A DNA stretch of 64,000 nt from an uncultured Dehalococcoidaceae bacterium (GTDB lineage Bacteria > Chloroflexota > Dehalococcoidia > Dehalococcoidales > RBG-16-60-22), in NCBI GenBank assembly GCA_964595455.1, contig CAZQQL010000002.1:725-64724 (forward strand), written 5' to 3'. The notes under the pieces were generated by a model, which did not search any database, had not been told where the DNA came from, and saw only the letters and a program-made list of their open reading frames with translations. Positions 1,940 through 57,767 of the stretch are shown piece after piece. Position 1 is the stretch's first letter, and each line of letters opens with the position of its first letter. A program made the translations under genes and the position numbers.

Positions 1940-2626
1940 TTAGGGCCACCAATTATCAAATGGTATATAGTATTTGACTCCTACAGCCTCTAGTAGACGA
2001 TGGTTCACATTTCTTGGAGCCATCAGATATACCCATACACCTTTTGTTCTCAAACTTTGGATTAAGTCAATGTAGTCACCGTCCGAAGCGATGAGTACGA
2101 AAATAGTATCTTGAGGTTCCTGGTTACAATCACTCCATGCTTGCGAGTCGAGTTCTTTGTCGATATTGGAATTGAATATCTGGGGACGCCATCCAAATTT
2201 TGACAATTCGCTTATTGCATGCGACTGGAAAGAACTCGCGAATACTTTTAACAAGTAAGAATGAGTTGTGGGAAACGTTTGTTGAAGGAGGTCTTTGATA
2301 GACGAGCCCTTTTGATTAGCATTAAGAAATGTCCAACCTTGATTCTGAAAATCCCAGAATCCGATTAATCTTGACCGGCCCTGTTTCATTTCAATCTCCT
2401 TCAACATGAAAAAATCAGGCTCAATATGGTTTTCCACCGCTAACGAATAAATGGCTGAAAGTGAGTCTAGATCGGGTTTTACTTTACCCAATTCCCATCG
2501 TGAGATAGCGGTTTTTGTTACCCCTAATTCTTGGGCGAACTTTTCTTGAGTAAGATGCAACTGATTTCGGATTTTGGATATACTAGCTTGGTCAAATACA
2601 TACTTTCTTTTTTTTATAGGTGTCAT
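1940..2626 (-). CDS. XRE-type HTH fused to NYN/LabA-like predicted RNase domain
   Basis: N-terminal HTH: LHLTQEKFAQELGVTKTAISRWELGK. C-terminal NYN-like motifs: IGFWDFQN (D..N) and IFVLIASDGDYIDLIQSLRTKGVWVYLM (the SxDxD plus G-V-V pattern). AT-rich. Confidence 0.65.
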   Translation of the reverse strand: MTPIKKRKYVFDQASISKIRNQLHLTQEKFAQELGVTKTAISRWELGKVKPDLDSLSAIYSLAVENHIEPDFFMLKEIEMKQGRSRLIGFWDFQNQGWTFLNANQKGSSIKDLLQQTFPTTHSYLLKVFASSFQSHAISELSKFGWRPQIFNSNIDKELDSQAWSDCNQEPQDTIFVLIASDGDYIDLIQSLRTKGVWVYLMAPRNVNHRLLEAVGVKYYIPFDNWWP

Positions 2627-2719
2627 ATTCTATTCTTCCTAGCCTTGACAACATTATGGACTATATTGTAATCTGTGTCAATCCTATATGATGATAAAAA
2701 AGGTACTTAATGATGACAA

Positions 2720-4096
2720 GTGGATTGTATGAGATCGATTAGTGGTCTTCTCAAGCAGTGGGACTGGGCGTTGTTCGGTCTCATCTTCCTGTATATGGCC
2801 CTGCCTCAGTTCTACCGCTCCTACAGCGTTTACCTCATCGGTAACGCGATACCGGACACCAATGCCCTTGCTACCGTAGCCCAATGGCAGTTCATTGAAC
2901 TGCTCTTGGAGATTATCTAGGAGACATTCGTCCTGGCTATCTTCTTCTTTGTTGGCAGGGGGCTGCAAAATAAGGAAGGACCGGGTTCTCCCATTCGCAC
3001 GTCTCTTTCCTCAATCCTCGTTTTTTCCTTTGTGATTGCGGGAATCCTCTTTTTCACTTCCGGCAACTTTGTTGACATTATCGGGACACCCGAGGCTATC
3101 CGGGAAACCACATCTGTTTTTCTCAAGATCAAATCAGCCGGTGTACCGATTACGCTACTGAGCATGGCCTTGGTTATCATTGTTGAGACTATCAATCATA
3201 AGCGGATAATCCTAACCTTAGCCATCCTGCAGGTCGTGTATCGTTTTATCCTGGACAGCCTTTTTTATGGCGGATACTCATTCTCACTGGATTTGGGTGT
3301 ACTTGGGGTTGGTTGGGCGGACCTTGGCGCCAGCCTGGCCTTATTGATAACAGCCATAATCTTGATCCGTAAAAAATTATTCCAGGGCGTTACCGGTCTG
3401 AAATCGTTTTTCGCCTTCAAGGATCTGAAGACCTATCTTGGCGTTGGGGGATGGTCTGGGCTGGACAGCATGGTCAGGAACTTTGCTTATTTTTTTATGG
3501 TGATAAGGCTCCTTAACTTGCTTGGAGAAGACTCTATCGGCGGCTATTATCTAGCTATGCACATCTTCTGGAGTTTCCTGCTGGTCCCGATACTGGCCCT
3601 CTCCGAGAGTTCCCGAGTGTTGATTGCCAATCACTCAAAGGATATCACCAAAGTCCGGAAACTGTGGTACTCGTCCATGGTCATCGGCGGACTGATTCTG
3701 GTGCTCTGGATGGTCTTTTTGCCATTCTGGAATACTGTAGCCAGTTTGCTTAACACCAATGCGGAAGTGGTGAGATTATCCGGAGAAGCAATGGGCCTAC
3801 TGATAGTTCCCTACATCCTTCTGGCGCTCAATACAGTCACGGACAGCATCTTCTACGGGGTGGGTAAAACTAAATACCAGGCTTACCAGGCTATCCTCAC
3901 CAACGGGACGGTGTATGTGGCAGCCTTTCTTCTTTATTTAACGGATATCTGGACACCAACATTCACGTCGATAATGATCCTCTTCGGGGCTGGAATCATA
4001 GTGGACTCTGTGCTGACCGTCTATTTCGCCATGCGTGTGTTGTTTCAGAAACCTCAGCGAAATACCGGGAGAGTTGAACTAGCACCTTCGGCATAA
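2720..4096 (+). pseudogene. MATE/MOP-superfamily transporter-like gene interrupted by a single in-frame TAG (2918..2920)
   Basis: ORFs 2720..2920 and 3032..4096 are in the same frame. Translating 2921..3031 gives ETFVLAIFFFVGRGLQNKEGPGSPIRTSLSSILVFSF with no further stop. The joined product is about 458 aa and hydrophobic throughout, consistent with roughly 12 TM segments. Confidence 0.5.
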
Positions 4097-11366: not shown

Positions 11367-12938
11367 GTGATAAGAACTAATCTCAGTCGACAAAGAGTAT
11401 ATAATCGAGGATTGCTCCTCCTGGCCTTCGAAAATGACTTATTACTTACGTCTATCGATGTATTGGATAAAGAGCACTTTGATCTCCGAACTCAGACATG
11501 GGACGAATACTGGAATTCGATTGCTAAACTGAATAATACAGTATTGAATGATATCTTACGTTTATTGTATTGCGCTTGGAAAGAGTATATTGCATCAAAG
11601 TTCGAGATATCAAAGGCAAATGAGTATTGTTTCTATTATTTTCTACTTCTCGAATCGCTGACTCAGAAGAAATCACAGTTCCCCTTTCAACTGTGGAGAC
11701 TCGCCCTCAGAAAAGTGTTGAGTTTTGAATGTTTTTCAGTTTCGGATTTCTCAACTGATGCGTGTGCCGCCGGTACATGCACATTGCGGAATCCATGTTA
11801 TTTGTTATCGAAACTCAAAATGCCGTCTAGTATGGATGATCCACAATACTTGCCGGTCATAACAACCTCTGCTTCTGTTAAACAGGATCTCTTTTATCAT
11901 TATAGGCAATATCCATTGTCAAATGACTCTTCATACTCCTTGTTGTTGTACCCTTCGGTTTCATTGGAATGTCGCTCCGAGAGTTTTCGCATTATCAACA
12001 CGTTCGTCAGAAGCTTGAGCGAGAAAAACGACCCTAGATCTACAGAAAGGGCTAAACGACTAGACCGAGGCATAGTCCGCAAAATACTAGACGAAAAAAT
12101 CACAAATTCTGAGCGAGTCGAAGTAGAAATCATCGATATTGGTGCAGGTAGTGGAAGCCTGAGTGCGGCAGTATGTGGAGAAATCCATAAGCATCATCCA
12201 AATTGCGTCTTTAAACTAAGGTCTGTAGATTTGGAATTGGCGAATACACATAGACTCCTCCAAAAGAACTTGATCGAATCCATGTCTGTAATCGAGTATT
12301 GTGCAGAAGATTATCGTCGCTGGTGTGGTTGTACACAGGTCATTTCAGGATCTTGCACTATTCGAATAACTATCGTTTCTAAATTATTCAACAATCTGAG
12401 CAATTTTTCTATTCAAGCAATTTCGAGGGAAGCATTGAGGGCAAGTCTCGGTAAATTGGATACTAGCAATACTTTAAGAAATTGTTTGCCTACTTCCTGT
12501 CTGGTTCCTGACAGGCCGCAATACGATCAACTATCGATAAATAATAGAAAAGTGATTCTTCCCGCTGGTAGGGTAATGCCTCAATACTCGCTCTTGCCAT
12601 TCTACGAAGGTATATATTCATGTTTTAAAGCCCAAGAAGAGCCTTCGACTAATAGTGCCGATTGCGTTTTTCTCCCTGTTAGAACGTTTAGTCGGGATTG
12701 TCTTCTTACTTATGATAAGACAAGTATTATTTCTATTTTAATTGAAATGTCCGATTTTGTTATTATTGAAGATGCGGATTTGACACCACAATCCCTTATC
12801 GAGCATGCCAATTCTGTATTGAAGGATTGTTCTGTATTCGATATGACAAAGGTACTTAGGCTAAAAAGAGATTACGTTTACGTCATATGCAGTAACAGAA
12901 CCATCATGCCTTTTATAGGGGGAGAGAGGATATGGTAA
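11367..12938 (+). CDS. large protein with central class-I SAM-methyltransferase-like fold (523 aa), otherwise unknown
   Basis: Motif I-like VEIIDIGAGSGSLSAAV (nt 12121-12160), acidic post-I strand KLRSVDLE, and later ITIVSKLFNNL and DFVIIEDADL. Large N-terminal region (about 250 aa) with no family recognised. GTG start as given by the track, so the start is uncertain. AT-rich. Stop overlaps the next start by 7 nt. Confidence 0.5.
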   Translation: MIRTNLSRQRVYNRGLLLLAFENDLLLTSIDVLDKEHFDLRTQTWDEYWNSIAKLNNTVLNDILRLLYCAWKEYIASKFEISKANEYCFYYFLLLESLTQKKSQFPFQLWRLALRKVLSFECFSVSDFSTDACAAGTCTLRNPCYLLSKLKMPSSMDDPQYLPVITTSASVKQDLFYHYRQYPLSNDSSYSLLLYPSVSLECRSESFRIINTFVRSLSEKNDPRSTERAKRLDRGIVRKILDEKITNSERVEVEIIDIGAGSGSLSAAVCGEIHKHHPNCVFKLRSVDLELANTHRLLQKNLIESMSVIEYCAEDYRRWCGCTQVISGSCTIRITIVSKLFNNLSNFSIQAISREALRASLGKLDTSNTLRNCLPTSCLVPDRPQYDQLSINNRKVILPAGRVMPQYSLLPFYEGIYSCFKAQEEPSTNSADCVFLPVRTFSRDCLLTYDKTSIISILIEMSDFVIIEDADLTPQSLIEHANSVLKDCSVFDMTKVLRLKRDYVYVICSNRTIMPFIGGERIW

Positions 12939-13873
12939 ATATTGGATGGACTGAGCGAAAGTCGCCGTTCTTGTCAGCATCAAGCTTAGCCTGCTTAGCG
13001 CACATCCCGGCCGTGAATATTACTTCTGGCTGCGCCCATGCATGTATTTATTGCTACGCGAAAAGCTACAGAAGTTTTCCTGGTGAAAATAAGGTCGTAA
13101 TTTATAAGGATATAGTTGACAAAATTGGTAGGGAGCTCTCAAGACGGAAGACGAAACCTCATGCGGTTTATTTCAGTCCTTCAAGCGATATGTTCCAACC
13201 CATTCCTGAGGTTCTTGATATTTCCCATGCGCTATTGAAATCGTTGTTTTATAAAGGTATCGGTGTTGCCTTGGTAACCAAAGGAGAAATTCCAGAACAA
13301 ACTCTGCATCTCCTTTTACAAAACGCAAATATGGTCAAGGCGCAAATAGGCCTTATTACTCATGACGAACAAACTAGACGTTTGTTCGAACCTTACGCGG
13401 CAAGTGTCGACACTCGTCTTCGCCAGATGACACTTATGTCCAATGGCGGCATTGACGTCAGAGCTAGAATAGTGCCGATTATACCTGGTATTACCGATAC
13501 TGTCAAAGACATTAATGCCCTTCTGCAATCCATTTCCACGACGGGAATTACCTGTATTTCGATTAGTGCTCTTTTCCTGAGACCGGCCATTCTGGCCTCG
13601 ATCAGGCATCATATTTCGGTTAGCCAACAACTGGGAAAAACGCTGGATCTCTATAGAGAGGCAAAAAGGATTTCAGTCCATGCGTCCAATTCCACAATCA
13701 TTCCTCTTCCACGAAATATTAGGGAAGGAATTTATCAACGCTTTAGAAGCATCGCAGAAGAATATGGGATGGAAACATCGATTTGTGGTTGTATGAACCC
13801 GGATATTGGAGGATTTTGCAGCATCGCCGGCAATTGGCCAGAAAGTGAGAAACAGCTAAATTGGAACATGTAG
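12932..13873 (+). CDS. radical SAM enzyme, SplB / COG1533 (DNA-repair-photolyase-like) type
   Basis: CxxxCxxC cluster motif in the context NITSGCAHACIYCYAKSY (nt 13031-13054). This resembles the GC.H.C.YCYA pattern of the spore-photoproduct-lyase-related group. 313 aa. Confidence 0.7.
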   Translation: MVNIGWTERKSPFLSASSLACLAHIPAVNITSGCAHACIYCYAKSYRSFPGENKVVIYKDIVDKIGRELSRRKTKPHAVYFSPSSDMFQPIPEVLDISHALLKSLFYKGIGVALVTKGEIPEQTLHLLLQNANMVKAQIGLITHDEQTRRLFEPYAASVDTRLRQMTLMSNGGIDVRARIVPIIPGITDTVKDINALLQSISTTGITCISISALFLRPAILASIRHHISVSQQLGKTLDLYREAKRISVHASNSTIIPLPRNIREGIYQRFRSIAEEYGMETSICGCMNPDIGGFCSIAGNWPESEKQLNWNM

Positions 13874-14526
13874 CCAAAACTATGACCGAAATGAATAAAA
13901 TTGCGCGTTTACCAATTGACCTCCTCGTTGCCCACCCGGAAAATAGTAACTTCATGAGAGCGGAGACCATCAGGAAATTACGGCTCCATATAGAGCAAAC
14001 TGGTAGGTATGAACCTTTGACGGTAAGAAAGCACCCTTGCGAAGTTGATAAGTTTCAAGTGATAAATGGGCATAACCGTTTACAGGTTCTTCGGTCTTTG
14101 AATAGACAGATGGTAGATTGTGTGATCTGGAATCTTGATGACCAGCAGGCAAGGTTATATTTAGCGACACTGAACCGACTATCTGGAAAGGAAATCCCTG
14201 AACGAAGGGCAGTCCTCATACAGAGATTGCTTCAATTGAACGACCAAGAAGAGTTGATCGGTTTGCTTCCTGAAAGCGAAAAGCAATTGGAGTATCTCCA
14301 ACGATTGTCAAATTTGGAAATGCCTGTATTGGTCGAGAAGGATCCTGTCGGACCATTGATCAATTCTCCAGTCATGCTTACTTTTTTTATGGAGAAAACA
14401 GAAGCTAAGGAATTGAACTTGGCGATTGATTTAGTTTTAGAGTGTGTTAACAAGAGCTTTTCACGCGGTACATCTCTCGCGCATATAGCTCATTTTTATC
14501 TCCACAATGAACGGAGATGCAAATAA
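13861..14526 (+). CDS. ParB/Srx N-terminal-domain protein (ParB-like nuclease/NTPase fold)
   Basis: IARLPIDLLVAHPENSNFM ... YEPLTVRK ... FQVINGHNRLQVL (nt about 14051-14092) matches the ParB N-terminal box with a GxxR-type motif. Start uncertain: TTG 13861, ATG 13882 or ATG 13891. Confidence 0.65.
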   Translation: MEHVAKTMTEMNKIARLPIDLLVAHPENSNFMRAETIRKLRLHIEQTGRYEPLTVRKHPCEVDKFQVINGHNRLQVLRSLNRQMVDCVIWNLDDQQARLYLATLNRLSGKEIPERRAVLIQRLLQLNDQEELIGLLPESEKQLEYLQRLSNLEMPVLVEKDPVGPLINSPVMLTFFMEKTEAKELNLAIDLVLECVNKSFSRGTSLAHIAHFYLHNERRCK

Positions 14527-37977: not shown

Positions 37978-38655
37978 ATGGGATCCAGGAAGAATATAAC
38001 GATACTCAGCCCCCAGATTTTGTTCCGGAACGGCCTCGAACACATCCTCTCCGCCGAACCCTCTTTTCAGCTTATCGGTTCGGTGGACTTCAACAACGGG
38101 GTCGAACATGTGCTGGAGAAAATGCCACCGGATACCGCCATTATCGATGTCGATGGCACGCCGGACCTCGGCTTCAACATTGCGCAGAGGATCAAGCACC
38201 GCCTTCCCAACGTCGGTATCGTCATCTTCTCTTCCAATCCCAGTGACGAGCAGCTTTTCCTCGCTCTGAAAGCCCAGGCTTCCGCTTACCTGAGCAAGGA
38301 AGCCAGCACCGAGGAGATCATCAAAACCATTACGCTCGTATCGGACGGCGGTTATCCCATCAACGAAAGTCTGCACACCAAGCCGAAGGTCGCCGAGCAG
38401 GTACTACAGAAGTTCCAGCAGCTTTCTCTCAATGCCGAGACGGAAAACGTCCTCTCACCGCTTACACCCCGCGAGACGCAGATCCTGAAGCTTATTGCTG
38501 AAGGATATCTTAACAAGCAGATCGCCGCTACCCTGGATATCAGCGAACAGACCATCAAGAACCACGTGACGTCGATCCTGCGTAAGTTGAATGCCAACGC
38601 CCGCACGGAGGCTGTGGTCATCGCCATCCGGCAGGGCCTTATTACTATCGACTAG
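37978..38655 (+). CDS. NarL/LuxR-family response regulator with atypical receiver domain
   Basis: C-terminal LTPRETQILKLIAEGYLNKQIAATLDISEQTIKNHVTSILRKLNA. The receiver has IIDVD (phospho-Asp position), but the N-terminal acidic pair reads ILSPQ instead of DD. Confidence 0.8.
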   Translation: MGSRKNITILSPQILFRNGLEHILSAEPSFQLIGSVDFNNGVEHVLEKMPPDTAIIDVDGTPDLGFNIAQRIKHRLPNVGIVIFSSNPSDEQLFLALKAQASAYLSKEASTEEIIKTITLVSDGGYPINESLHTKPKVAEQVLQKFQQLSLNAETENVLSPLTPRETQILKLIAEGYLNKQIAATLDISEQTIKNHVTSILRKLNANARTEAVVIAIRQGLITID

Positions 38656-47795: not shown

Positions 47796-47948
47796 GTCTC
47801 TTTTTTTACCGTAAAGCTTACGCGAGCGGACAACGAATGTACGCGATAGCGACACAAAAGGAGGTGATGACTATCGGTAGCAACAAAATTCAAGGTTGAC
47901 CCCCGGTTGTTCTCATTCTCATCTATTGAACAGGAGGGAAGAAAAGTA

Positions 47949-50900
47949 ATGAAGAAGACCAAATATCCAAAATGGTCGCGCCTGCTGATTGCAGCGCTGG
48001 TGCTCGTGACCCTGCTCATGACGGCGCCGGCGGCCATTCTTGCTCAGGACAACAACAGCACTTCCTGTTGCCCTGACTACTGCAAGCTCCAGGTAAACAT
48101 TGTGATACCTGATTGCGTCCAGCCTTTGCCGCCTGAAGAAGGCTGTCCATGCGACGTCATTTGCGATTACTATGAAGGCAATCCCTGCGTCTGGGTTTAC
48201 GAGGGTGAAACCTTCTGGGTAAACGCTACCGTCGCCAGGCCGGACAATATGGGCGACGCCATCGAGAACGTCTACGCCGGCATCTGCCTTGCAGGCGGCT
48301 TCCGGCCGGCTTTCACCGTGGAAGAAGCTGTGATGATCGATGGACCCAACGCCTGCCTCGTTGATTGCTGCCCGGTCCAGGGTCCCTTTACTCTCAACGG
48401 CTGCTTCGACGTCAAGGACATATGGTGGAAGGTCCGCTGTCTTGACGCCGGTCCTGTCTACATCACGGTCAATGCCTGGGTTGGCGAAGAGAATAATGAC
48501 CTTGACGTCATCCAGCAGATTGACGGTGGATGCTACGGTGATTCCGATACCATCGTGGTTAAACAGATCGAACGGCCCGTCGAGTATCCCAACCTCGAGG
48601 TTGAGATAATCGAGTGCCCGGACTTGCCCGTAATGCCCGGTGATATCTATGGTGTCAAAGCCCGCGTCTGGAACCGCACCGATCAGCAGATCGACTGCGT
48701 CTGGGCGTACATCGATATCTGCGGCCCGGCCGAGCTTACCAGCAGCAATCCTTTCTTCTGGTATGCCGGCAACATCCGGGCCAACTCTTCTGTAGAGGTC
48801 GCCTGGATGGTGCGGTGCACCGGAGACCAGTTCCCGCTCGGCGTTAACAACCTCGATTCCGCTCCATACTATAGCAACGGCGATGTCAAGATATGCGTCG
48901 ATGCCTGGTACTGGGGCCAATGGAAATACAATGAAACCAAAGCCGATTGCTGTTGTGTGCACCAGATAGTACCGGCGCAGTTACTCGCCACCCTCACCTC
49001 CTCCGTGGAGAAAGTCTGCACTGAGTGCGACAACTGCTTCGATGTTACCCTCGATGTCACCAACCTTTCCCGCTACATCCCCGTTGAGGAAATCGTGGCT
49101 GAACTCCACATCGAAGGCGAAGCTTTCATCAACAACAGCGCTCTGGTCCCGTTGAACACTATCTCCTGCAACGGCGCCACTTCCTACACCTGGCAGGTCT
49201 GCTGTGAAGATGTGGGCGATGTTTACCTCTGGGCGAGCCTGACCGGATATGATCCCGTGTTCGATTGCCAGGTCTGCGCTGAAACGAACCCCGCCTACGT
49301 CAGCCAGGAATACCCGCTCATGGTGACCGTCCAGGAACCATTCCCTTACTCGCAGATAAGCGTCGGACAGACGTTTGAATTCACCTATCGCGTGACCAAC
49401 TGTCAGGATGACGGCGATGAAATGGACGGCATCTGGGTCGGCCTTGACCTGCGTGACGCCCATTGCGTTACGCCGGCCAGTCTGGTTGTCCAGGTGGTTC
49501 CTGATTGTACCACCGGCATTCAGCCCTTCACGATTCAGGCCGCTCCTCTCGGGAATTGCTCGAACATCTATGAAGCGTACCTCGACTGCATGATGGACTG
49601 CTGCTGGGCGGACATCACCTGGCAGTTGACCTGCACCTGCTCCGGCATGTGCGATCTCCCGATGCCGCAGCCCACAATCACGACTGTCACCGTCGATTCT
49701 GTCCCGAACGGCGGGTTCCCGGATAGCTGCGGTGACTGTGTACCCGTTTGCCCTGATGACATCCTTGGCTACGCCTATGTCGGCGATCGCGCTGAAGCCG
49801 CATGTGGAACAGGGTTCTACGAGGATGGACTGGTTGATTACTGGACAACCACCATTCGTCATGGCGGCGCGGGCGGTTACCGTGCTGAACTCGGGTACGG
49901 TCCCGGAGACCGCGAAGAATACTTTACCGGCGGCTCGGTCCCCTGGCCGAACGGTGATCCCATGCATGTCATCCTCGAGTACGATGATGACGATGGGGAA
50001 GCCGAACTGACCGTCTACAATACCGTGTTCGGTGATGACCCGGTCGAACTCGAGTATGATGTGGACGGCGCCGGCGGCAGGATCGTCATGACCGCCAAGA
50101 CCAGCAATAATCAATATGGTGTTGTCGAAGCCTACAACATCGAACTCAATGGCCTGCCTCTGGCCGGCTGCAGGGAAAACGGCTGCTATGAACTCTATGC
50201 CCAGGGCACCGGTTATCCGGGTGAAGGGGCCCGCGACGTGCAGCACATGGTCATCGACTGCATCGACGGCAGCTTCCTCCTTGAGTTCGACCTCCTCTTC
50301 GCCTGGGACGGCAATACCGCTGATGAAGGCCCGGCCCTCACCATCAACGTCGAAGATGCGGAAGTCGTAGATTGCTTCTTCGTCGGCGACTACGATACCG
50401 TGACCGTTCATCAGATGGACCCTCCGTGCCTCGCTGCTTCTATCGACGCTTATGAAGGCGCCTTCAGCGTCGGCAACTTCGAATGCATGACCTCCGTCAA
50501 ACGCTCCAGCGATGCGGCTGTCGCCGTCGGTGAATACTTCACCGTCGTCGTGCCCGTCGCCAATACCGGCGAAGCTACCGCGGAAGACGTCTGCGTCAGC
50601 CTCGCTGCCAACGGTCCGGCTTACCTCGTCAGCGGCAACCTGACCGTTTGCCTCGGTGACATCCCGTGCCACGGCGCCGCTAAGGCCGTCTGGGAGTTCC
50701 AGTGCTGCGGCGAAGGCGCCATGGGATTCACCATCGGCAGCCTGATCGGCTCCGATGCCAATTCCGGTCTGCCGATTGCCGGCAACTGTCTCGATACCGG
50801 CTGTGCCATCTACGTCGACCAGATCCCGTTGACGGTGGAAGTAATTCAGCCTGCCAACTGCACCGAATTCATCGAGGGCGATGCTTTCTCCGTCAAAGCC

Positions 50901-52583
50901 CGCATCTGCAACAACAGCACATTGGGCATCTCCCTGGATGATGTCTATGCCGCGCTTTGCTGGTTCGGCGAAGGCGATATCGCTCTGAACTTTGGTCAGT
51001 GGAACCCTGTTTGCCTGGACACACTCTCCCCCGGAGAATGCGCTGAGGCTACCTGGCAGGTCTACTGCTGCAAGGCCGGCGATGTCACCTTCAAGATCGA
51101 TGTCTGGAACGCCTGTGATCCCTACCTCGACATCGAATCCTGTCCCGTCACTATCCACCAGTTCGAACCCGGCCGCATTTGCTGCCACATCCTGTCTCCG
51201 AAACTGAACGACTACGACGAATGCTACGAGTTCTGTGAGTATGAAGCCTACATCGCTACCGGCCAGGAATTCGCTGTCACTGCCAAGTTCTACAACTCCG
51301 GCGACCGCGCCTTCTGGATCGAGGACTTCGGTCTGGCTGCCTGGGATGATGGCGACATCGATATTCTCGGCGACCCGCAAGCGAACTGGCCCGATCCGGC
51401 AAATCCCTATCGCCTTATGCCGAGAGAATCCGTGATCATCAGCTGGGACGTGGTTTGCACCGATGCTGGTGACACCGACCTGAAAGTCTGGGTCGAAGGT
51501 TCTGACGACATGAACGGCCAGGACAGCTGCTGCTCCGAGGTGAGGATCATGCAGTATCCCGCGGCCCATCTGGTCGTCGATATAACCGACTATCCGATTG
51601 AAGACATCGAAGTTGGTTCCGATTTCTCGGTGACCGCCAGTGTCTGCAATACCGGCGATGCTGACGCCTGGGAAGTCAAAGCGACCCTTTCCGTTAACCC
51701 CGCCGGCAGCGTGCGCCTCAGCGACGCTGATGCCACCGGCAGCTATACCAAGGACCTCGGCAACCTCATCGGCCACTCTGTCAACGAATGTGATGAGGCA
51801 ACCTGGGTTCTCAACTGCAAGGAAGCCTGCAACAGTACCATCACCATAACCGCAACCGGTTACGATGAATACGGGTATGAAGTGTTCCAGGTTTGTGGGA
51901 CCGGAGTCATCGGTACCGAGAACCCTGGCTTCTACCAGATAACCTGCTGTGAACTCCAGCTTGCCGGCAACCCCGGCGCGGAAATCCCGTCCCGGTTCAT
52001 CGAGCCGGACAGCGTCACCGTCAAGCAGGTTGGTGAAGGCGGCGAGGATCCCATCGAGCCTCCGGAAACCGAATTCATCGCACTTGGCGAAGGCTGGAAC
52101 CTCGTCTCCATGCCGTGGTACATCGAACCGTGCGATCGCGCCTGCGCTGCTCTGCTCGTTGATATCATCGACTGCGTGGATGCCGTCTACTACTACGATG
52201 AAGTGACCCGCACCTTCAAGGCCTACTTCCCGCATGAAGACCCGCTGGCCAGCAACCTGGCCGCCATCTGTGATGGTCCCGGCTACTGGTTCCTCATGAA
52301 CGATGATTGCGATCTCTGCATTGAAGGTAGTCTCTTCCCCGGAGGCGGCGGCGCTCCTCCCACCTACTTTGTCGGCGCTACCGGCTTCAGCCTCATCGGC
52401 CCGAGGATCGGTGATGAACCCATGCTTTGCTCTGAATGGCTCGAAGGTCTCAGCTACGGCATGGTACTGGGCTTCGATAACGAAGCCAATGCCTACTACA
52501 TCATCGACCCCGAAGAAGACATGGTCTACCCCGGCCAGGGCTACTGGGTATTCTTCACGGCTACTGGCGAACGAACACAGTAA
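47949..52583 (+). CDS. giant secreted Cys-rich repeat protein (1544 aa; CARDB/Ig-like modules; shared C-terminal module)
   Basis: ATG preceded by AGGAGGG. Signal peptide MKKTKYPKWSRLLIAALVLVTLLMTAPAAILA. At least eight modules end in W.[VL].C..(A)G.: IWWKVRCLDAG, VAWMVRCTG, YTWQVCCEDVG, ITWQLTCTCSG, AVWEFQCCGEG, ATWQVYCCKAG, IISWDVVCTDAG, ATWVLNCKEAC. They are preceded by V.N.G...A-type strands (e.g. VTASVCNTGDADAWEV). Confidence 0.7.
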   Translation: MKKTKYPKWSRLLIAALVLVTLLMTAPAAILAQDNNSTSCCPDYCKLQVNIVIPDCVQPLPPEEGCPCDVICDYYEGNPCVWVYEGETFWVNATVARPDNMGDAIENVYAGICLAGGFRPAFTVEEAVMIDGPNACLVDCCPVQGPFTLNGCFDVKDIWWKVRCLDAGPVYITVNAWVGEENNDLDVIQQIDGGCYGDSDTIVVKQIERPVEYPNLEVEIIECPDLPVMPGDIYGVKARVWNRTDQQIDCVWAYIDICGPAELTSSNPFFWYAGNIRANSSVEVAWMVRCTGDQFPLGVNNLDSAPYYSNGDVKICVDAWYWGQWKYNETKADCCCVHQIVPAQLLATLTSSVEKVCTECDNCFDVTLDVTNLSRYIPVEEIVAELHIEGEAFINNSALVPLNTISCNGATSYTWQVCCEDVGDVYLWASLTGYDPVFDCQVCAETNPAYVSQEYPLMVTVQEPFPYSQISVGQTFEFTYRVTNCQDDGDEMDGIWVGLDLRDAHCVTPASLVVQVVPDCTTGIQPFTIQAAPLGNCSNIYEAYLDCMMDCCWADITWQLTCTCSGMCDLPMPQPTITTVTVDSVPNGGFPDSCGDCVPVCPDDILGYAYVGDRAEAACGTGFYEDGLVDYWTTTIRHGGAGGYRAELGYGPGDREEYFTGGSVPWPNGDPMHVILEYDDDDGEAELTVYNTVFGDDPVELEYDVDGAGGRIVMTAKTSNNQYGVVEAYNIELNGLPLAGCRENGCYELYAQGTGYPGEGARDVQHMVIDCIDGSFLLEFDLLFAWDGNTADEGPALTINVEDAEVVDCFFVGDYDTVTVHQMDPPCLAASIDAYEGAFSVGNFECMTSVKRSSDAAVAVGEYFTVVVPVANTGEATAEDVCVSLAANGPAYLVSGNLTVCLGDIPCHGAAKAVWEFQCCGEGAMGFTIGSLIGSDANSGLPIAGNCLDTGCAIYVDQIPLTVEVIQPANCTEFIEGDAFSVKARICNNSTLGISLDDVYAALCWFGEGDIALNFGQWNPVCLDTLSPGECAEATWQVYCCKAGDVTFKIDVWNACDPYLDIESCPVTIHQFEPGRICCHILSPKLNDYDECYEFCEYEAYIATGQEFAVTAKFYNSGDRAFWIEDFGLAAWDDGDIDILGDPQANWPDPANPYRLMPRESVIISWDVVCTDAGDTDLKVWVEGSDDMNGQDSCCSEVRIMQYPAAHLVVDITDYPIEDIEVGSDFSVTASVCNTGDADAWEVKATLSVNPAGSVRLSDADATGSYTKDLGNLIGHSVNECDEATWVLNCKEACNSTITITATGYDEYGYEVFQVCGTGVIGTENPGFYQITCCELQLAGNPGAEIPSRFIEPDSVTVKQVGEGGEDPIEPPETEFIALGEGWNLVSMPWYIEPCDRACAALLVDIIDCVDAVYYYDEVTRTFKAYFPHEDPLASNLAAICDGPGYWFLMNDDCDLCIEGSLFPGGGGAPPTYFVGATGFSLIGPRIGDEPMLCSEWLEGLSYGMVLGFDNEANAYYIIDPEEDMVYPGQGYWVFFTATGERTQ

Positions 52584-52609
52584 ACAAATAATCCGAGGAG
52601 GGTGCAACA

Positions 52610-54382
52610 ATGAATTGGAACCTGTACAAAACCCGCACACCGGGCACCCGGAGAACGCTGGCAGGAGCCCTCGTGCTCCTGCTGGCCCTCGGATTGCTGG
52701 TCGCTTCCGCAATCCCTGTGCTGGGTGTATCTCTGGACCCGGGACACACATTCTATGGAGTGGCAACCATCAATGGAGCGGCGGCTGCTGACGGAGCGCT
52801 GGTGGAAGCTAAGATTGGGGCCACCGTCATGGCCTCGGCCTATGTTGACGAAGATACCGTCGCCGGACAGTACTGGCTCATGGTCCCTAAGGATGACAGC
52901 CAGACTGCCGAGAAAGACGGCGGCGTCCAGGGCGATACCGTTGACTTCTACGTCGACGGCACCTGGGCGGCCAGCTATATCTTCTTCAATCCGGATGACT
53001 CGACTACCGGCTACGAAATGAGCACGCGTGTCGACCTCGCCGTAACCGCCGCCGAACCGGAAACCTATACCCTCACCGTGACCTCCACCGGCTGCTGCAC
53101 GATCACCGTGGAAGACCCCTACGTGGTGATCGGCACGATAGCCGCCGGGGATACTGACGACTTCGTCCTGGATGAGGACACGGTCGTTACTCTCATCGCC
53201 AATATCACTACCACTTGTCAGTTCGACGGCTGGACCGTGGATGGCGTTGACTGCGCCAACAATCCTACTACCGTCACCATGGATGCCGACCATACGGTAG
53301 TCGCCTATTGCACCACCGTCGAACCCCCCGTGACCTACGAACTCTATATAGAATCGATCGGTTGTGGTGATATCGCTATGACAGTGGGAAGCTTCACGTT
53401 GATGATCCCCGGAGGAACAAGCTCCACTCATGATGTAGCAGAAGGAGCAGTTGTTGAACTCGAGGTCGTCAATACCGATACCTGCCAGTTCGACGAATGG
53501 ATCGTCGATGAAGTCGCCACTACTGATAATCCTGTTTACATCACCATGGATAGTGACCACAGTGCTACAGGCTATTCTACAACGGTCGAACCACCTGTCA
53601 CCTACGAACTTACGGTTACATCAGTCGGCTGCTGTCCGGTGACCATCTCCTGGTGCGATACCTGTTCCGAGACAGTCAACACTTACAATACCAAAACACT
53701 GGAGTTCAATGAAGGAACGGTCGTCACCCTCACTGCCGGGTGCAGTACGTACTGCGAATTCATCAACTGGGTGGTGGATGGTGTTGGCGTCTACGATAAT
53801 CCCATCACTGTTACCATGGACGCCGACCACAACGTCACCTCCTGCTGCCAGATCACCGGCGTGGTTATCAATCAGGTCTATCTGAAATGCGGCTGGAACA
53901 CGTTCTCAGTGCCGATCCTCCTTGACGAAGCGATCGATACCTGGGGCGAATTCATCGAATTCAACGACCTGGATATCGGCTTGTTCCTCTCATACGATCC
54001 GATAGCCAAAGCCTGGATCCCTGGGGATCTGGCTACACCGCTGAAGCCGCTGGATGGTTACTACGTCTACATGAACGACCCCGGCTACGCGAAAATCGTT
54101 CCGAACACGAATGGCTCGGATTATCCGGTGAAAACACTGCAGCCCGGTCTCAATCTCGTCGGTGTGGCAACACTGCATGACGAGATCAGCATCTACGAAT
54201 TCCTGTATATCACGGACTGGGAGGTGATCTTGAGCCCGTACATCAATTCTTCCGGTTGGACCGAGGCTTTCAGGACATACGAATACACCGAAACGCCGAT
54301 GGTGGAAATGGGCCGCGCCTACTGGGTCTACATGGAAACCACGGATGATCTCCTCGGCTTGACCTCGACACCTGTCAACTAG
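52610..54382 (+). CDS. secreted protein with three InlB-B-repeat-like modules and the shared C-terminal module (590 aa)
   Basis: SD GAGGAGGG. N-terminal signal/TM. Three ~90-aa repeats: TY.L.[VI].S.GC......, then G..V.L.A......C.F..W.VDG....NP..[VI]TMD.DH. The C-terminus aligns with that of the giant protein (GWN..S.P, GY[WY]V.M). Confidence 0.7.
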   Translation: MNWNLYKTRTPGTRRTLAGALVLLLALGLLVASAIPVLGVSLDPGHTFYGVATINGAAAADGALVEAKIGATVMASAYVDEDTVAGQYWLMVPKDDSQTAEKDGGVQGDTVDFYVDGTWAASYIFFNPDDSTTGYEMSTRVDLAVTAAEPETYTLTVTSTGCCTITVEDPYVVIGTIAAGDTDDFVLDEDTVVTLIANITTTCQFDGWTVDGVDCANNPTTVTMDADHTVVAYCTTVEPPVTYELYIESIGCGDIAMTVGSFTLMIPGGTSSTHDVAEGAVVELEVVNTDTCQFDEWIVDEVATTDNPVYITMDSDHSATGYSTTVEPPVTYELTVTSVGCCPVTISWCDTCSETVNTYNTKTLEFNEGTVVTLTAGCSTYCEFINWVVDGVGVYDNPITVTMDADHNVTSCCQITGVVINQVYLKCGWNTFSVPILLDEAIDTWGEFIEFNDLDIGLFLSYDPIAKAWIPGDLATPLKPLDGYYVYMNDPGYAKIVPNTNGSDYPVKTLQPGLNLVGVATLHDEISIYEFLYITDWEVILSPYINSSGWTEAFRTYEYTETPMVEMGRAYWVYMETTDDLLGLTSTPVN

Positions 54383-54397
54383 ACTGAAAAAAGAAAT

Positions 54398-54424
54398 CCG
54401 GGGGCTCCTCTATGGAGCCCCCGG
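54398..54424 (+). other. intercistronic 11-bp stem-loop
   Basis: CCGGGGGCTCC-TCTAT-GGAGCCCCCGG with no U-tract. It is followed by AAGGAGG and the ATG at 54443. Confidence 0.4.
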
Positions 54425-54442
54425 AAACCATAAGGAGGCAAT

Positions 54443-55225
54443 ATGTTGAAAAGACGGATTCTCTTGCCACTTGCTGTCACGATCTGCCTGGTGCTGTTCG
54501 CCGCCGGACTGGTACAGGCCTCATCTCCCCTGGAGGCTCCTCAGTTCCATGCATTCGGGGGCGATGTGACCATCAACGGCAGTCCCGCACCCATAGGGAC
54601 GGAGGTCAAAGGAGTGGCTGAAGGGGTTATTCTCGGTTCCAGGTTCGGGAATCCCAGGATCACCAATGTCGTAGGAAAATACGGTCAGTCCGATGCCAAC
54701 AAACTTGTGGTGCAGGGGTTGCAAAACGGAGACGCTATCAAGTTCTACGTCAATGGCGTTGAAGCCGACCAGACTGCGGTTTTTTCTTCCATGGGGATTT
54801 CCACCCTTGACCTCACCGTCACGATAGAAGAAGGTTCCGGTGGTGGCGGTGGTGGTGGCGGTAGTTCTTCCGGCGGCAGCGGCGTCGATGAAACCCCGAC
54901 TACTACCCAGGCCGCGGCAACGACTTCGACTGGCGCCACGCAAACGACATCCGGCGTAACGACGACATCCGTATCGTCCGGCCCAACCGATACCCAGCCT
55001 GCCCAGACGACAAAGTCCGTGGTTGGTCCGGTCCAGACTACGCAGTCCGGAGCGGAACAGGGCCAGATAGCCGGGGTGACCACTACCCCCGCTTCCACTC
55101 AAGCCGCCCCGTCTGGCAGTGACACCGGCGATGGCCCCAACTGGTGGCTCATCGGCGGAATCATCGGGTTCGCGTTCGTGGCGGGGTCCGGCTGGTTTGT
55201 CGTTCGTCACGTACGGCGGTACTAG
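54443..55225 (+). CDS. secreted protein with Gly-run, Thr/Ser/Gln-rich linker and C-terminal TM anchor (260 aa)
   Basis: Signal peptide. The N-terminal domain is homologous to that of the 590-aa protein (F.G.VTING..A..G..V ... GD.[IV].FYV.G). Then GSGGGGGGGGSSSGGSG, a T/S/Q-rich stretch, and finally WWLIGGIIGFAFVAGSGWFVVRHVRRY. Confidence 0.65.
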   Translation: MLKRRILLPLAVTICLVLFAAGLVQASSPLEAPQFHAFGGDVTINGSPAPIGTEVKGVAEGVILGSRFGNPRITNVVGKYGQSDANKLVVQGLQNGDAIKFYVNGVEADQTAVFSSMGISTLDLTVTIEEGSGGGGGGGGSSSGGSGVDETPTTTQAAATTSTGATQTTSGVTTTSVSSGPTDTQPAQTTKSVVGPVQTTQSGAEQGQIAGVTTTPASTQAAPSGSDTGDGPNWWLIGGIIGFAFVAGSGWFVVRHVRRY

Positions 55226-55425: not shown

Positions 55426-55467
55426 TTGACAACGCTTCGGAGCGGGGTACAATGAACGCATAGGGAC
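55426..55467 (+). promoter_or_regulatory. promoter plus conserved leader box, copy D
   Basis: CCCTTGACAACG (identical 12-mer to copy B), 16-nt spacer, TACAAT (55448-55453), then GAACGCATAGGGAC followed by a second ACGCATA. Confidence 0.45.
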
Positions 55468-55515
55468 GCATATTGTACGTTTCAAGTAACCGGAACGGGA
55501 CTCAGGAGGTATTGT

Positions 55516-56688
55516 ATGAAGCTCGCTATCATCGGGTTGGGACAATGCGGCTGCAACATCGCGGACATTTTCTACGATGTCAGCAATTACTCCCAGTCCA
55601 TCTTCAACCGCCGTATCAACATCGTCACGGATACCTTCGCGGTCAATACGGACGAGACAGACCTCGGCGGGTTCAAGCACATCCCTAAAGATAAGTCTCA
55701 CCGGATTCTCATCGGCAACATGTCAACCTTCGGGCACGGCGTCGGCAAGATCAATACAGACGCCGCCGAGATCATCAAATCGGTCAATTCAGTCGTGATA
55801 GACACCGTTCTCAGGTCTGCCAAGTTCCATGAAAGCGATGCCGTGCTTGTCATCGCCAGCAGCGGCGGCGGTACCGGCTCCGGCACCATCGGCTGGACCA
55901 TACGGGAACTCAAGGACAGGACGGATAAACCGGTCTATGCCCTGCTCATTCTCCCGTTCGCGTTCGAGGAGCGGGGCGATACTTCCTATGCCGTCATCAA
56001 CAGCGCTACCTCGCTCAATACCGTGACCAAGTACGCGGATGCCGTTTTTCTGTTCGATAACGAGGGCCACCGCCAGATCGGCAACCACCTCTCCCGCACC
56101 TTCAAGGACATCAATGAAGAGATTGCCATGAACTTTTACGACCTCTGCTGCGCCGGCGAGGAAAAGAAACAGAAATTCGTCGGTAACAAAGTTGTCGATG
56201 CCGGGGACATCAAGCAGTCCCTGGCCGGTTATTCCGTCATCGGCCGCGGCGAGGTCCACCTCCCCGTGCTCCGGCTGGGAAAGGGTAACTACCGGCAGGG
56301 CATCAAGGACAACAGCCTTGTCTTCACCGCTCTCAAGCAGGCGGAGACTAATCTCGGCCTCGGCGTCAGTCTCGATCATGCCCGGCGTATCCTCGTGCTG
56401 ATCACGAGTCCCAAGGACTGCCTTTCCACGACCGTGATGGAGGAAATATTCGGCTACCTGGACAGGAAAGCTCCCAAGGCCGTTATCCGCATCGGGGACT
56501 ACCCACGCCGGGACCGGGAAATATCGGTCACGCTCATCGCCTCGGAACTGGTCCGGCTCAGCCGTCTGGAATACCTCGTCATGCAAGCGGAAGCCCTCAT
56601 CAAGAAGAGGGACAACCTGCGCCGCGAGACCGATAACGAGATGTACCTCATGCGCGAGTTCAGCCGCAACATTCCGACACTGGACTAG
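55516..56688 (+). CDS. divergent FtsZ/tubulin-superfamily GTPase (390 aa)
   Basis: T1 loop IIGLGQCGCNIA. FAVNTDETDL (compare FtsZ NTDAQAL). T3-like GHGVGKINTDAAE. Tubulin signature SSGGGTGSGT (nt 55861-55887). LPFAFEERG (compare FtsZ PFxFEG). FLFDNEG. T7-like NKVVDAGD. Strong SD CAGGAGG. Confidence 0.8.
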   Translation: MKLAIIGLGQCGCNIADIFYDVSNYSQSIFNRRINIVTDTFAVNTDETDLGGFKHIPKDKSHRILIGNMSTFGHGVGKINTDAAEIIKSVNSVVIDTVLRSAKFHESDAVLVIASSGGGTGSGTIGWTIRELKDRTDKPVYALLILPFAFEERGDTSYAVINSATSLNTVTKYADAVFLFDNEGHRQIGNHLSRTFKDINEEIAMNFYDLCCAGEEKKQKFVGNKVVDAGDIKQSLAGYSVIGRGEVHLPVLRLGKGNYRQGIKDNSLVFTALKQAETNLGLGVSLDHARRILVLITSPKDCLSTTVMEEIFGYLDRKAPKAVIRIGDYPRRDREISVTLIASELVRLSRLEYLVMQAEALIKKRDNLRRETDNEMYLMREFSRNIPTLD

Positions 56689-56939
56689 GCGGCGGACTTA
56701 CAGAGCGTGAACTCTAAGTGCGGATAGCGCTGAAACCTTACAGCGACTGTCGGCCACGTGCACTTCGCGAGCGTATGTTTCTTTTAGGCACTACCGTATG
56801 TTCCTGCGGCTCTGCTACGTAATTCCTTGATTTAAAATGGCCATGACAAAAGTACACCCTAACACCCTGTGATTGACGGGAAAACATGCTATTATGGTAG
56901 TAAGAACTGGTAAATCAGGAACTTATCTTGGAAGATTTG

Positions 56940-57767
56940 ATGGGTCAGGTACTTGGCCTGACCGTTGTTTTTAATCCCTGGATGCTATTGGCGATCTTCG
57001 TCATGACACTCGTAGCCGAATTCGGGGTATCCATCCCGCTTCTCATGGAGTCCGTCTGGCTGTTCACGGGCTATAACTTCGTCTCCGGTACTATTTCCGC
57101 TGAACACCTGGTCATTTTCATTGCCGTCGGGCTGGTGGGCCGCCTCCTCGGGGGCGTGATCGTTTTCTACCTTGCCTGGTACGGACGTAAGTTCATCGGC
57201 GTTCCCCTGTTCCGTTTCTTCAAGTCAAAGGGGAATGCGCTGATTGCCCGCTGGGCCCCTCTCCAGCGTTTCGCCGGCGTTGTTGAGAGGTCCGTGCACT
57301 GGGCCGCGAGACGGACCAACAGCGATGCAGTTACGGAAAGTGGCGGCATCAAGCTGTTTGGGCGCCGGTTTCAGCTCTCGCCCCTCACCGTTGCCGGCGG
57401 TCGTTTTATCGGATTGCGCTGGCCTATCACTATCTTCCTCGGCGCCAAGCGCCAGCGGACCAAGCTGCTGCTCGGCATTGCCATCTTCAGCGTTCTCTGG
57501 GACGCGGCTTACATCCTCTTCGGCATGCTCGGCGGCAAGAGCGGTCTCGACCAGATGCAGATGGTGTTTCTTCCCATCGGCACTATCGTGGCCATCTCAT
57601 GCCTTGTATTCGGCTTCAAGAAACTGAGAGCGTTCCTGGTTTCTCGCCGGATGTCCCGGCCTGCAGCTGCGCCTGCACTCATCTGCTGCCCGCCGCCGAA
57701 CCCTGAACCCCGCTACGCGCTGGCCTTACGGACAGCGGATACCGTTTTCTCCCCGGAAAAGTCCTAG
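56940..57767 (+). CDS. membrane protein (DedA/SNARE-associated-like)
   Basis: Hydrophobic. VAEFGVSIPLLMESVWLFTGYNFVSG ... FYLAWYGRKFIG resembles the DedA core. Start uncertain (TTG 56928 or ATG 56940). Confidence 0.45.
   Translation: MGQVLGLTVVFNPWMLLAIFVMTLVAEFGVSIPLLMESVWLFTGYNFVSGTISAEHLVIFIAVGLVGRLLGGVIVFYLAWYGRKFIGVPLFRFFKSKGNALIARWAPLQRFAGVVERSVHWAARRTNSDAVTESGGIKLFGRRFQLSPLTVAGGRFIGLRWPITIFLGAKRQRTKLLLGIAIFSVLWDAAYILFGMLGGKSGLDQMQMVFLPIGTIVAISCLVFGFKKLRAFLVSRRMSRPAAAPALICCPPPNPEPRYALALRTADTVFSPEKS

Follow-up and report, generated by a model that had tools for sequence, protein, structure and literature searches.

Here, we describe a gene of the tubulin superfamily from an uncultured Dehalococcoidaceae bacterium, found in a 64,000-nucleotide stretch of contig CAZQQL010000002.1 (assembly GCA_964595455.1, positions 725 to 64,724 of the forward strand); this whole stretch is referred to below as the window. 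By sequence, domain content and predicted fold, its 390-amino acid (aa) product is of the CetZ type, which has been described as archaea-specific and as the third branch of the tubulin superfamily (Brown and Duggin 2023, PMC9856176). Judged from its sequence, it is also distinct from the canonical FtsZ of Dehalococcoidales. We consider it probable that the gene encodes a bacterial CetZ-type protein, belonging to a group of relatives that we call clade A, whose filaments would organize shape or envelope in a wall-less cell.

Assignment to the CetZ type

In a Pfam scan, the protein matched Tubulin (PF00091) and CetZ_C (PF21011), both over threshold, and gave no match to FtsZ_C or Tubulin_C. Archaeal CetZ proteins have the same make-up (CetZ1, 4B46; CetZ2, 4B45; Methanosaeta CetZ, 3ZID), and the CetZ_C match spans positions 1-178 of the 180 in the Pfam model. 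Two further profiles stayed under their cut-offs: Tubulin_2 (PF13809), of the FtsZl1 type, reached 25.3 bits against 27 and covered residues 67-179 only, and the NCBIfam FtsZ equivalog TIGR00065 reached 38.2 bits against 295.2.

Searches of the PDB gave the same picture. The best sequence match was CetZ1 of Haloferax volcanii (4b46; E 3e-37, full length), followed by CetZ2 (4b45; E 4e-27) and then by Methanosaeta CetZ. FtsZ (E 2.5e-5), BtubA (9e-5) and TubZ (0.059) came later in the ranking; the FtsZ, BtubA and tubulin matches lay at about 1e-5 to 1e-3 and covered part of the protein only, those to tubulin and BtubA just ~80-115 residues around T4-T5, with E of at least 8e-5. We derived an AlphaFold2 model from the family alignment (mean predicted local distance difference test score, pLDDT, of 85; predicted template modeling score of 0.87) and compared it with known structures using Foldseek, where CetZ1, CetZ2 and two chains of the Methanosaeta protein took the first four ranks, with E from 2e-30 to 3e-22. 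The fold is predicted to be that of the Haloferax proteins, with target-normalized template modeling scores of 0.91 for CetZ1 and 0.92 for CetZ2 and a root-mean-square deviation of 2.2-2.4 Å; the score for Methanosaeta CetZ was 0.79. The best FtsZ (E 1.6e-21) ranked behind all CetZ, and TubZ was at rank 21 with 15% identity. Finally, hhalign aligned the family profile with a small archaeal CetZ alignment at E 1.4e-53 over 365 columns and with FtsZ at E 6.8e-9 over 283 columns.

Motif alignment added a set of traits that the protein has in common with archaeal CetZ, namely GxGQxG in T1, GHGVG in T3, GGGTGSG in T4, an insertion between H7 and T7, VVDxx(D/E) in T7, GDYP and a long C-terminal helix. 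The two groups likewise have a conserved hydrophobic C-terminal peptide, several paralogs per genome and a host envelope without peptidoglycan. There are also differences. Identity to archaeal CetZ is 29-32%; the window protein has Asp in T7 where CetZ has Glu, and LPFAFEE in T5 where CetZ has LPGxDE; compared with CetZ1, its insertion after helix H1 is longer and its M-loop shorter; and the bacterial family has a Pro in its C-terminal motif (NIPTLD or DIPSLL). In the tree described below, the window family forms a clade of its own, not nested in haloarchaeal CetZ1 or CetZ2, and its host is bacterial.

The likeness to FtsZ extends to the superfamily and fold, the T7 Asp, a PFxFE-type T5 loop and a D/N-I-P-x-L/F-L C-terminal peptide. 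In contrast to FtsZ, the window protein has GQCG in T1 (FtsZ, GGGG), GGGTGSG in T4 (FtsZ, GGGTGTG), VVDAGD in T7 (FtsZ, NxDFAD) and CetZ_C in place of FtsZ_C, and its gene lies outside the mraZ-rsmH-ftsA-ftsZ cluster. Eukaryotic tubulins, BtubA/B and Asgard tubulins resemble it in the tubulin signature and in T1, where GQCG is as in beta- and gamma-tubulin, but the window protein has no Tubulin_C and matches tubulins and BtubAB only in part. TubZ/PhuZ and FtsZl1 belong to the same superfamily and likewise lie outside the division cluster, whereas the window family is found among chromosomal housekeeping genes.

The initial annotation of the window, made from the sequence alone, had read this gene as a specialized cytoskeletal GTPase rather than the housekeeping FtsZ and had listed several candidate families. 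Our Pfam, PDB, Foldseek and hhalign results agree and single out the CetZ-like option; TIGR00065, hhalign and the neighbor-joining tree described below all place the protein outside canonical FtsZ. The annotation had also called the GQCG and GGGTGSG loops tubulin-type. A signature scan confirmed that GGGTGSG fits the tubulin signature [SAG]GGTG[SA]G, and both loops are present as described; they are, however, ordinary CetZ traits.

The archaeal host that goes with CetZ was not found: the relatives come from metagenome-assembled genomes (MAGs) of Dehalococcoidales and Dehalococcoidia, and the genes nearby are bacterial in kind, with PcrA/UvrD and MutL in the window and ftsA, dnaX, recR and recO in related loci. 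The boundary of the canonical CetZ clade has been set by Thermococcales CetZ (PMC9856176). Dehalococcoidia ‘CetZ-like’ sequences are mentioned in one sentence of the survey by Santana-Molina et al. 2023, which is the sole mention that we found in the literature, and no member has been characterized. The Pfam and JGI pipelines already tag Dehalococcoidia relatives as CetZ.

Loops, C-terminus and expression signals

All of the loops quoted in the initial annotation, and the charged C-terminal stretch, are present in the 390-aa translation: GLGQCGCN (T1, residues 7-14), NTDETDL (44-50), GHGVGK (T3, 73-78), GGGTGSG (T4), LPFAFEE (T5, 146-152), FDNE (T6, 180-183) and NKVVDAGD (T7, 224-231). In an alignment of 57 homologs, G7, G9, Q10, G12, N44, T45, G73-G75, G77, K78, G117-G119, G121-G123, P147, F148, E151, N182, D228 and D231 are invariant, and T120 is nearly so (at least 90%). 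None of the GTP-contact and T7 residues checked on the alignment is missing, and by this measure the GTP pocket is complete. D231 aligns with the catalytic position of archaeal CetZ, E218 in CetZ1 and E212 in CetZ2, with Asp instead of Glu; Glu218 is the catalytic T7 residue of CetZ1 in Haloferax (PMC13556191).

The extreme C-terminal peptide has the consensus N-L/I-P-T/S-L-D in clade A and K-D-I-P-S-L-L in clade B, a second group of relatives introduced below. Similar motifs (DIDSLL or IEPLF) close the sequences of many archaeal CetZ representatives, giving D/N-I/L-P/D-x-L-L/F/D as the terminal motif common to both clades and many archaeal CetZ. In sequence, NIPTLD also resembles the C-terminal peptide of FtsZ (D-I/V-P-x-F-L).

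The ratio of nonsynonymous to synonymous substitution rates (dN/dS) of the gene is 0.045 against its 91% identical ortholog in locus L003, 0.062 against L001 and 0.12 against L004 (loci of the genome scan described below are given by L numbers). By these values the gene is under strong purifying selection, and together with the 1209 homologs found in databases they indicate a genuine gene under selection and not a chance open reading frame (ORF). The feature had initially been given the span 55426-56688. The gene in it is real, but its first position is the -35 hexamer of a promoter-like site, outside the coding sequence, which begins at 55516 (Table 1). The promoter-like element is kept upstream of the L003 ortholog, the Shine-Dalgarno sequence is kept in L003 and L001, and a GC-rich hairpin lies between the CetZ-like gene and the upstream ORF. 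With these elements 5' of it, the gene looks to be transcribed independently. Its GC content is typical for the contig (~0.57).

Table 1. Features of the CetZ-like gene and its immediate surroundings in the window
Feature	Position	Strand	Basis
Coding sequence, 390-aa CetZ-like tubulin-superfamily GTPase, clade A	55516..56688	+	ATG start
Tubulin/FtsZ GTPase domain, residues 3-187	55522..56076	+	Pfam PF00091, E 1e-23, 85 bits vs cut-off 33
T1 loop GLGQCG, residues 7-12, Gln-bearing tubulin/CetZ type	55534..55551	+	translation, alignment
T4 tubulin signature GGGTGSG, residues 117-123	55864..55884	+	signature scan, alignment
CetZ_C C-terminal domain, residues 189-358, with GDYPRR motif	56080..56589	+	Pfam PF21011, E 2e-15, 57.1 bits vs cut-off 21.6
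T7 loop VVDAGD, residues 226-231	56191..56208	+	alignments; D231 opposite Haloferax CetZ1 Glu218
Long C-terminal helix (predicted), residues 349-384	56560..56667	+	AlphaFold2 model, 10-residue block-mean pLDDT about 86-95
Extreme C-terminal peptide NIPTLD, candidate docking motif	56668..56685	+	conserved; docking role inferred
Sigma-70-type promoter-like site TTGACA-16 nt-TACAAT, 11/12 consensus matches	55426..55453	+	function inferred
Shine-Dalgarno AGGAGG, 6 nt 5' of ATG	55504..55509	+	read from sequence
Three secreted/cell-surface protein genes (1558 aa, 590 aa, 260 aa)	47907..55225	+	Pfam, ORFs; same order in L003
279-aa multi-pass membrane protein	56928..57767	+	78% identical to same-position gene in L003

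Distribution, phylogeny and genomic context

The best 120 of the 1209 homologs are all of ~390 aa and combine Tubulin with CetZ_C, and the named ones among them are from Dehalococcoidales or Chloroflexota MAGs. A scan that used one genome per prokaryotic species gave 80 loci, nearly all in Dehalococcoidales or Dehalococcoidia MAGs. One of them, L003, is from an uncultured Dehalococcoidaceae bacterium; its CetZ-like protein is the 91% identical ortholog mentioned above, and its gene order is that of the window. Clustering of 112 CetZ-like ORFs from the loci yielded clade A with 36 members, including the window protein, clade B with 61, clade D with four and two singletons (these names, and clade E in the tree, are our own). 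Four of the MAGs are titled Deltaproteobacteria or Syntrophobacterales (L006, L016, L017 and L020) and carry CetZ-like genes 53-56% identical to the window gene. The synteny around these genes is of the Dehalococcoidales type in L016, L017 and L020, and L006 is too short to show any; these bins are therefore probably mislabeled or contaminated.

To place the family, we built a neighbor-joining tree with 100 bootstraps that also included Haloferax CetZ1 and CetZ2, Halogeometricum CetZ, three FtsZs and full-length representatives taken from 1.84 billion proteins that had been searched exhaustively. Of 30 representatives looked up, just a few bore organism names (Halogeometricum and Haloplanus CetZ, Nitrososphaerales, Dehalococcoidia and Chloroflexota), which leaves most of the outgroup unlabeled, and no CetZ of verified name from Thermococcales or methanogens was in the tree. 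The window protein groups with those of L003, L001 and L004 (99% bootstrap), clade A groups with two metagenomic representatives (97%), and clades A, B, D and E form a Dehalococcoidia superclade (95%) that is separate from archaeal CetZ in the sense of not being nested in haloarchaeal CetZ1 or CetZ2. Since the attachment of the FtsZ outgroup has a bootstrap of at most 44%, we make no claim on the direction of any transfer.

The initial annotation had described the gene as an orphan. This is true of the window, where no second tubulin signature was found in any frame, but the family is widespread, and at least two full-length copies are present in 23 of the 81 loci. Of the 36 clade A genes, 17 come right after gap, and in 13 of those 17 a clade B gene is directly next. 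The conserved array reads ligA-pth-SLOG-eno-(MBL)-(HGD-D)-gap-CZA-CZB-(f2, f1, second CZB)-dnaX-ybaB-recR-recO-lysS, with CZA for a clade A gene, CZB for a clade B gene and f1 and f2 for two coiled-coil families. It is seen at L017:1696-18639 and also in L009, L013, L014, L015, L018, L021, L048, L050 and L060, with two or three tubulin-like paralogs in tandem within it. The housekeeping synteny of these relatives indicates that the CetZ-like family is core and vertically inherited there, and not mobile. No phage record matched the family, and the only matches among plasmid records were haloarchaeal CetZ genes on megaplasmids, at ~31-32% identity; with no phage and no bacterial plasmid match, an origin from a mobile element was rejected.

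Clade B genes are often accompanied by the coiled-coil families. A convergent f1 gene lies 3' of the clade B gene in 34 of 53 loci (for example L055:11226-13478(-) and L013:4525-6809(-), with 32 more), in wider contexts that are diverse. The f1 product is a repetitive helical protein, 323-918 aa long and rich in A/E/K/S, that resembles a coiled coil; f2, often found between the clade B gene and f1, encodes a small coiled-coil protein of 145-195 aa. Neither family has a Pfam match at E <= 0.1 or a transmembrane segment, and both are absent from the window. We regard them as candidate partners of bacterial CetZ-like filaments.

Several side observations concern the wider family. Clade D consists of proteins of 359-369 aa (L078:11438-12547(-), L042:10123-11217(-), L080:11408-12517(-) and L081:11438-12517(-)), encoded ~6 kb from a pair formed by a TIG-protein gene and a clade B gene. 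In the one member aligned (L078), the nucleotide-binding loops are degenerate (GVGDCG, SSLGVG and AAGSLGSG), the T7 loop is kept as VLDAGD and the C-terminal peptide is absent; on these features, the clade D protein could serve as a capping or regulatory subunit that does not bind GTP. The complete 2.3-Mb Dehalococcoidales MAG CP070842.1 has two clade B loci (L055 and L067), 1.37 Mb apart, with an identical five-gene neighborhood and identical protein lengths, which reflects a large duplication or else an artefact of the assembly. In 19 loci, among them L004:231-1037, L036, L039-L046, L066, L068 and L077, a LuxR-type response regulator (receiver + GerE) is encoded no more than a few genes away from a CetZ-like gene; the window has one at 37978-38655, 17 kb upstream.

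In the window itself, Pfam scans of ~60 ORFs revealed no fts, mur, mre or mra gene, and thus the absence of division and wall genes first noticed near the gene holds for the whole 64 kb. Neighbors are of bacterial type and include a PcrA/UvrD helicase, MutL and a pyridine-nucleotide oxidoreductase. Scans for transfer RNAs and Rfam families gave no matches in the window. The membrane protein encoded downstream had been labeled DedA-like, and this label is not borne out: the protein has no Pfam match at E <= 0.1. Two islands of low GC content, 11367-14526 (0.42) and 2001-4000 (0.45), stand out from the contig (~0.57). The first, which may be acquired DNA, has an ORF of 523 aa with no assignment, a gene for a radical-SAM protein and one for a weakly ParB_N-like protein (25 bits against a Pfam cut-off of 26.3).

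Three surface-protein genes precede the CetZ-like gene. The 1558-aa protein is Cys-rich with CARDB/DUF11 domains, the 590-aa protein has an InlB B-repeat, and the 260-aa protein has a signal peptide, a Thr-rich region and a C-terminal membrane anchor. L003 shows the order PKD protein, large Cys-rich surface protein, 511 aa, 261 aa, CetZ-like gene, membrane protein and PcrA. A gene for a TIG/Ig protein ends 24 bp upstream of the CetZ-like gene in L001, a PKD-subtilase and a 1418-aa protein are encoded beside it in L004, and genes for TIG-domain proteins are further found beside the clade A gene of L030 and beside clade B genes in five loci. We compared the proteins of the window (52610-54382 and 47907-52583) with those of L003 (3361-7401) and L004 (8336-12592). 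The last ~180 residues of the 590-aa protein are like the C-termini of the 1346-aa protein of L003, which is the counterpart of the 1558-aa protein, and of the 1418-aa protein of L004 (26-27% identity; E 6e-8 and 3e-6, respectively). This C-terminal domain, which is possibly a wall-anchoring module, is all that the window surface proteins share with the L003 and L004 proteins, and they show no detectable similarity to the TIG-domain neighbors in L001 and L030. By eye, the tail of the 1558-aa protein looks alike too (GWN...GYW).

A tie between the CetZ-like gene and these surface-protein genes had been suggested at the outset. Synteny within the window's own small subclade favors it, but with neighbors that are dissimilar across loci there is no family-wide rule of a conserved surface-protein neighbor, and the separate promoter of the CetZ-like gene disfavors simple co-transcription. 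The recurrence is suggestive, and we regard a functional link as weakly supported.

Proposed role and alternatives

The host group provides the setting for a proposed role. Dehalococcoides and Dehalococcoidales are without the wall genes of the dcw cluster and without peptidoglycan, and the wall of Dehalococcoidales is S-layer-like, resembling that of Archaea (Wiegand et al. 2023, PMC10608941). Adjacent mraZ-mraW-ftsA-ftsZ genes are kept in all of the high-quality Dehalococcoidales genomes examined in that study. One of our loci shows this arrangement next to a family member: L044:3906-9988 has mraZ-rsmH-ftsA-ftsZ, directly followed by a CetZ-like gene of clade B, with nrdR after it. Its ftsZ is canonical, with E 1e-110 to FtsZ of B. 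subtilis, GGGTGTG, NLDFAD and a DVPSFLRR tail. There is no mur or ftsW gene between rsmH and ftsA in this locus, consistent with the loss of peptidoglycan in Dehalococcoidales. The canonical ftsZ of L044, taken together with the presence of ftsZ across the order (PMC10608941), indicates that CetZ-like proteins are additional to FtsZ there.

The reading that we consider probable is modeled on Haloferax, where the transitions between rod and plate are controlled by CetZ1 and CetZ2 and the T7 mutants E218A and E212A form hyperstable filaments that distort the envelope (PMC13556191). GTP-bound subunits of the window protein would polymerize head to tail, with D231 in the T7 loop of one subunit completing the GTPase site of the next, which would make the filaments dynamic. 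The long C-terminal helix would present NIPTLD to a membrane-associated partner, much as FtsZ presents its peptide to FtsA or SepF. Lying under the membrane of a peptidoglycan-less, S-layer-type cell, such filaments would organize shape or envelope assembly rather than form a division ring; this role is proposed by analogy with CetZ1 and CetZ2. The window copy would have left an ancestral gap-cetZA-cetZB-dnaX array and would now stand beside cell-surface protein genes.

Several points weigh against a shape-organizing CetZ-type protein linked to the cell surface. The polymerization, membrane association and shape role of the bacterial members are all taken from homology. Linkage with surface proteins is confined to the window's own subclade and a few other loci, and about half of clade A lies in the housekeeping array beside glycolytic genes. 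The neighbor-joining tree leaves the Dehalococcoidia clade inside, beside or outside archaeal CetZ. At the catalytic T7 position the protein has Asp, like FtsZ, and its T5 loop LPFAFEE is near the FtsZ form RPFxFEG; filament dynamics may therefore depart from those of archaeal CetZ. With a C-terminus like the FtsA-binding peptide of FtsZ, and with a clade B gene right after ftsZ in L044, the family could have a part in division.

This last pair of observations feeds the foremost of four alternatives, which become progressively less likely in the order given here. The protein could be an accessory division protein that co-assembles or competes with FtsZ on the same anchor (FtsA or SepF-like), in the manner of archaeal FtsZ1/FtsZ2. 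Its C-terminal N/D-I/L-P-S/T-L-L/D motif is like the FtsZ peptide, which is LDVPSFLRR in the L044 FtsZ, the T7 Asp and the PFxFE motif of T5 are FtsZ-like, and the clade B paralog of L044 lies immediately downstream of ftsA-ftsZ. However, this linkage to ftsZ occurs in just one of 53 clade B loci and in no clade A locus, the window gene has no division neighbor in 64 kb, and the reported roles of archaeal CetZ1 and CetZ2 are in shape and motility, with no division defect on deletion of cetZ2 (PMC13556191). We therefore regard a role in division as unlikely, while giving it more weight than the remaining three.

A second alternative is that the filaments scaffold metabolic or biosynthetic enzyme complexes instead of shaping the envelope. 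In what looks like the ancestral arrangement, clades A and B come right after the glycolytic genes eno and gap (enolase and GAPDH), and archaeal cetZ1 neighborhoods are rich in nucleotide and cofactor biosynthesis genes, which led Brown and Duggin to raise the idea (PMC9856176). Yet the array runs on into dnaX-ybaB-recR-recO, which makes it look like a generic housekeeping region more than a functional operon, and the window copy has no eno or gap neighbor. Such scaffolding would be speculative in every organism, and we find it improbable here.

The two weakest alternatives can be dealt with briefly. A DNA-segregation tubulin of the TubZ/PhuZ kind, from a plasmid, phage or integrated element, would fit the common superfamily, the stand-alone gene with its own promoter and the low-GC islands elsewhere in the window, but it is very improbable given the distant TubZ matches (E 0.06; rank 21 by fold, 15% identity), the lack of any phage-record or bacterial plasmid-record match, the absence of a TubR-like partner gene among the window neighbors, the GC content typical of the contig and the conserved chromosomal synteny of the relatives. 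Equally improbable is a sole, highly divergent housekeeping FtsZ, for which one could cite the lack of another FtsZ homolog within the window, one part of the genome; against it stand the TIGR00065 score (38 bits against 295), the lack of FtsZ_C, the agreement of sequence, fold and profile on CetZ, the canonical ftsZ beside a family member in L044 and the ftsZ genes of all high-quality Dehalococcoidales genomes examined (PMC10608941).

Beyond the proposal of a CetZ-type shape protein, a broader scheme can be outlined, which we put forward tentatively and think rather less likely true than false. A multi-paralog CetZ-type cytoskeleton, made up of clades A, B and D with coiled-coil partners, would take the place of the murein/MreB machinery in giving shape and organizing the envelope of the S-layer Dehalococcoidales; it would have come from Euryarchaeota by inter-domain transfer or would share an ancient common origin with archaeal CetZ, and the copy in the window, a clade A paralog, would have been relocated and be dedicated to positioning or assembling the adjacent surface proteins.

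As far as we have found, the breadth of the family, its paralog arrays, its coiled-coil partners and its restriction to a wall-less bacterial order are apparently undescribed. A conserved, selected, multi-paralog and chromosomally core CetZ-type family in one bacterial order contrasts with the view of CetZ as archaea-specific. The clade B coiled-coil neighbors suggest candidate partners of a kind not known for archaeal CetZ, and the mixture of CetZ traits (T1, T4 and CetZ_C) with FtsZ traits (the catalytic Asp, the PFxFE T5 loop and the C-terminal peptide) bears on the relationship between CetZ, FtsZ and tubulin. The order in question independently lost peptidoglycan and took on an S-layer-like wall, and this leads to a testable idea, namely that a CetZ-type cytoskeleton may accompany wall-less S-layer envelopes in any domain of life.

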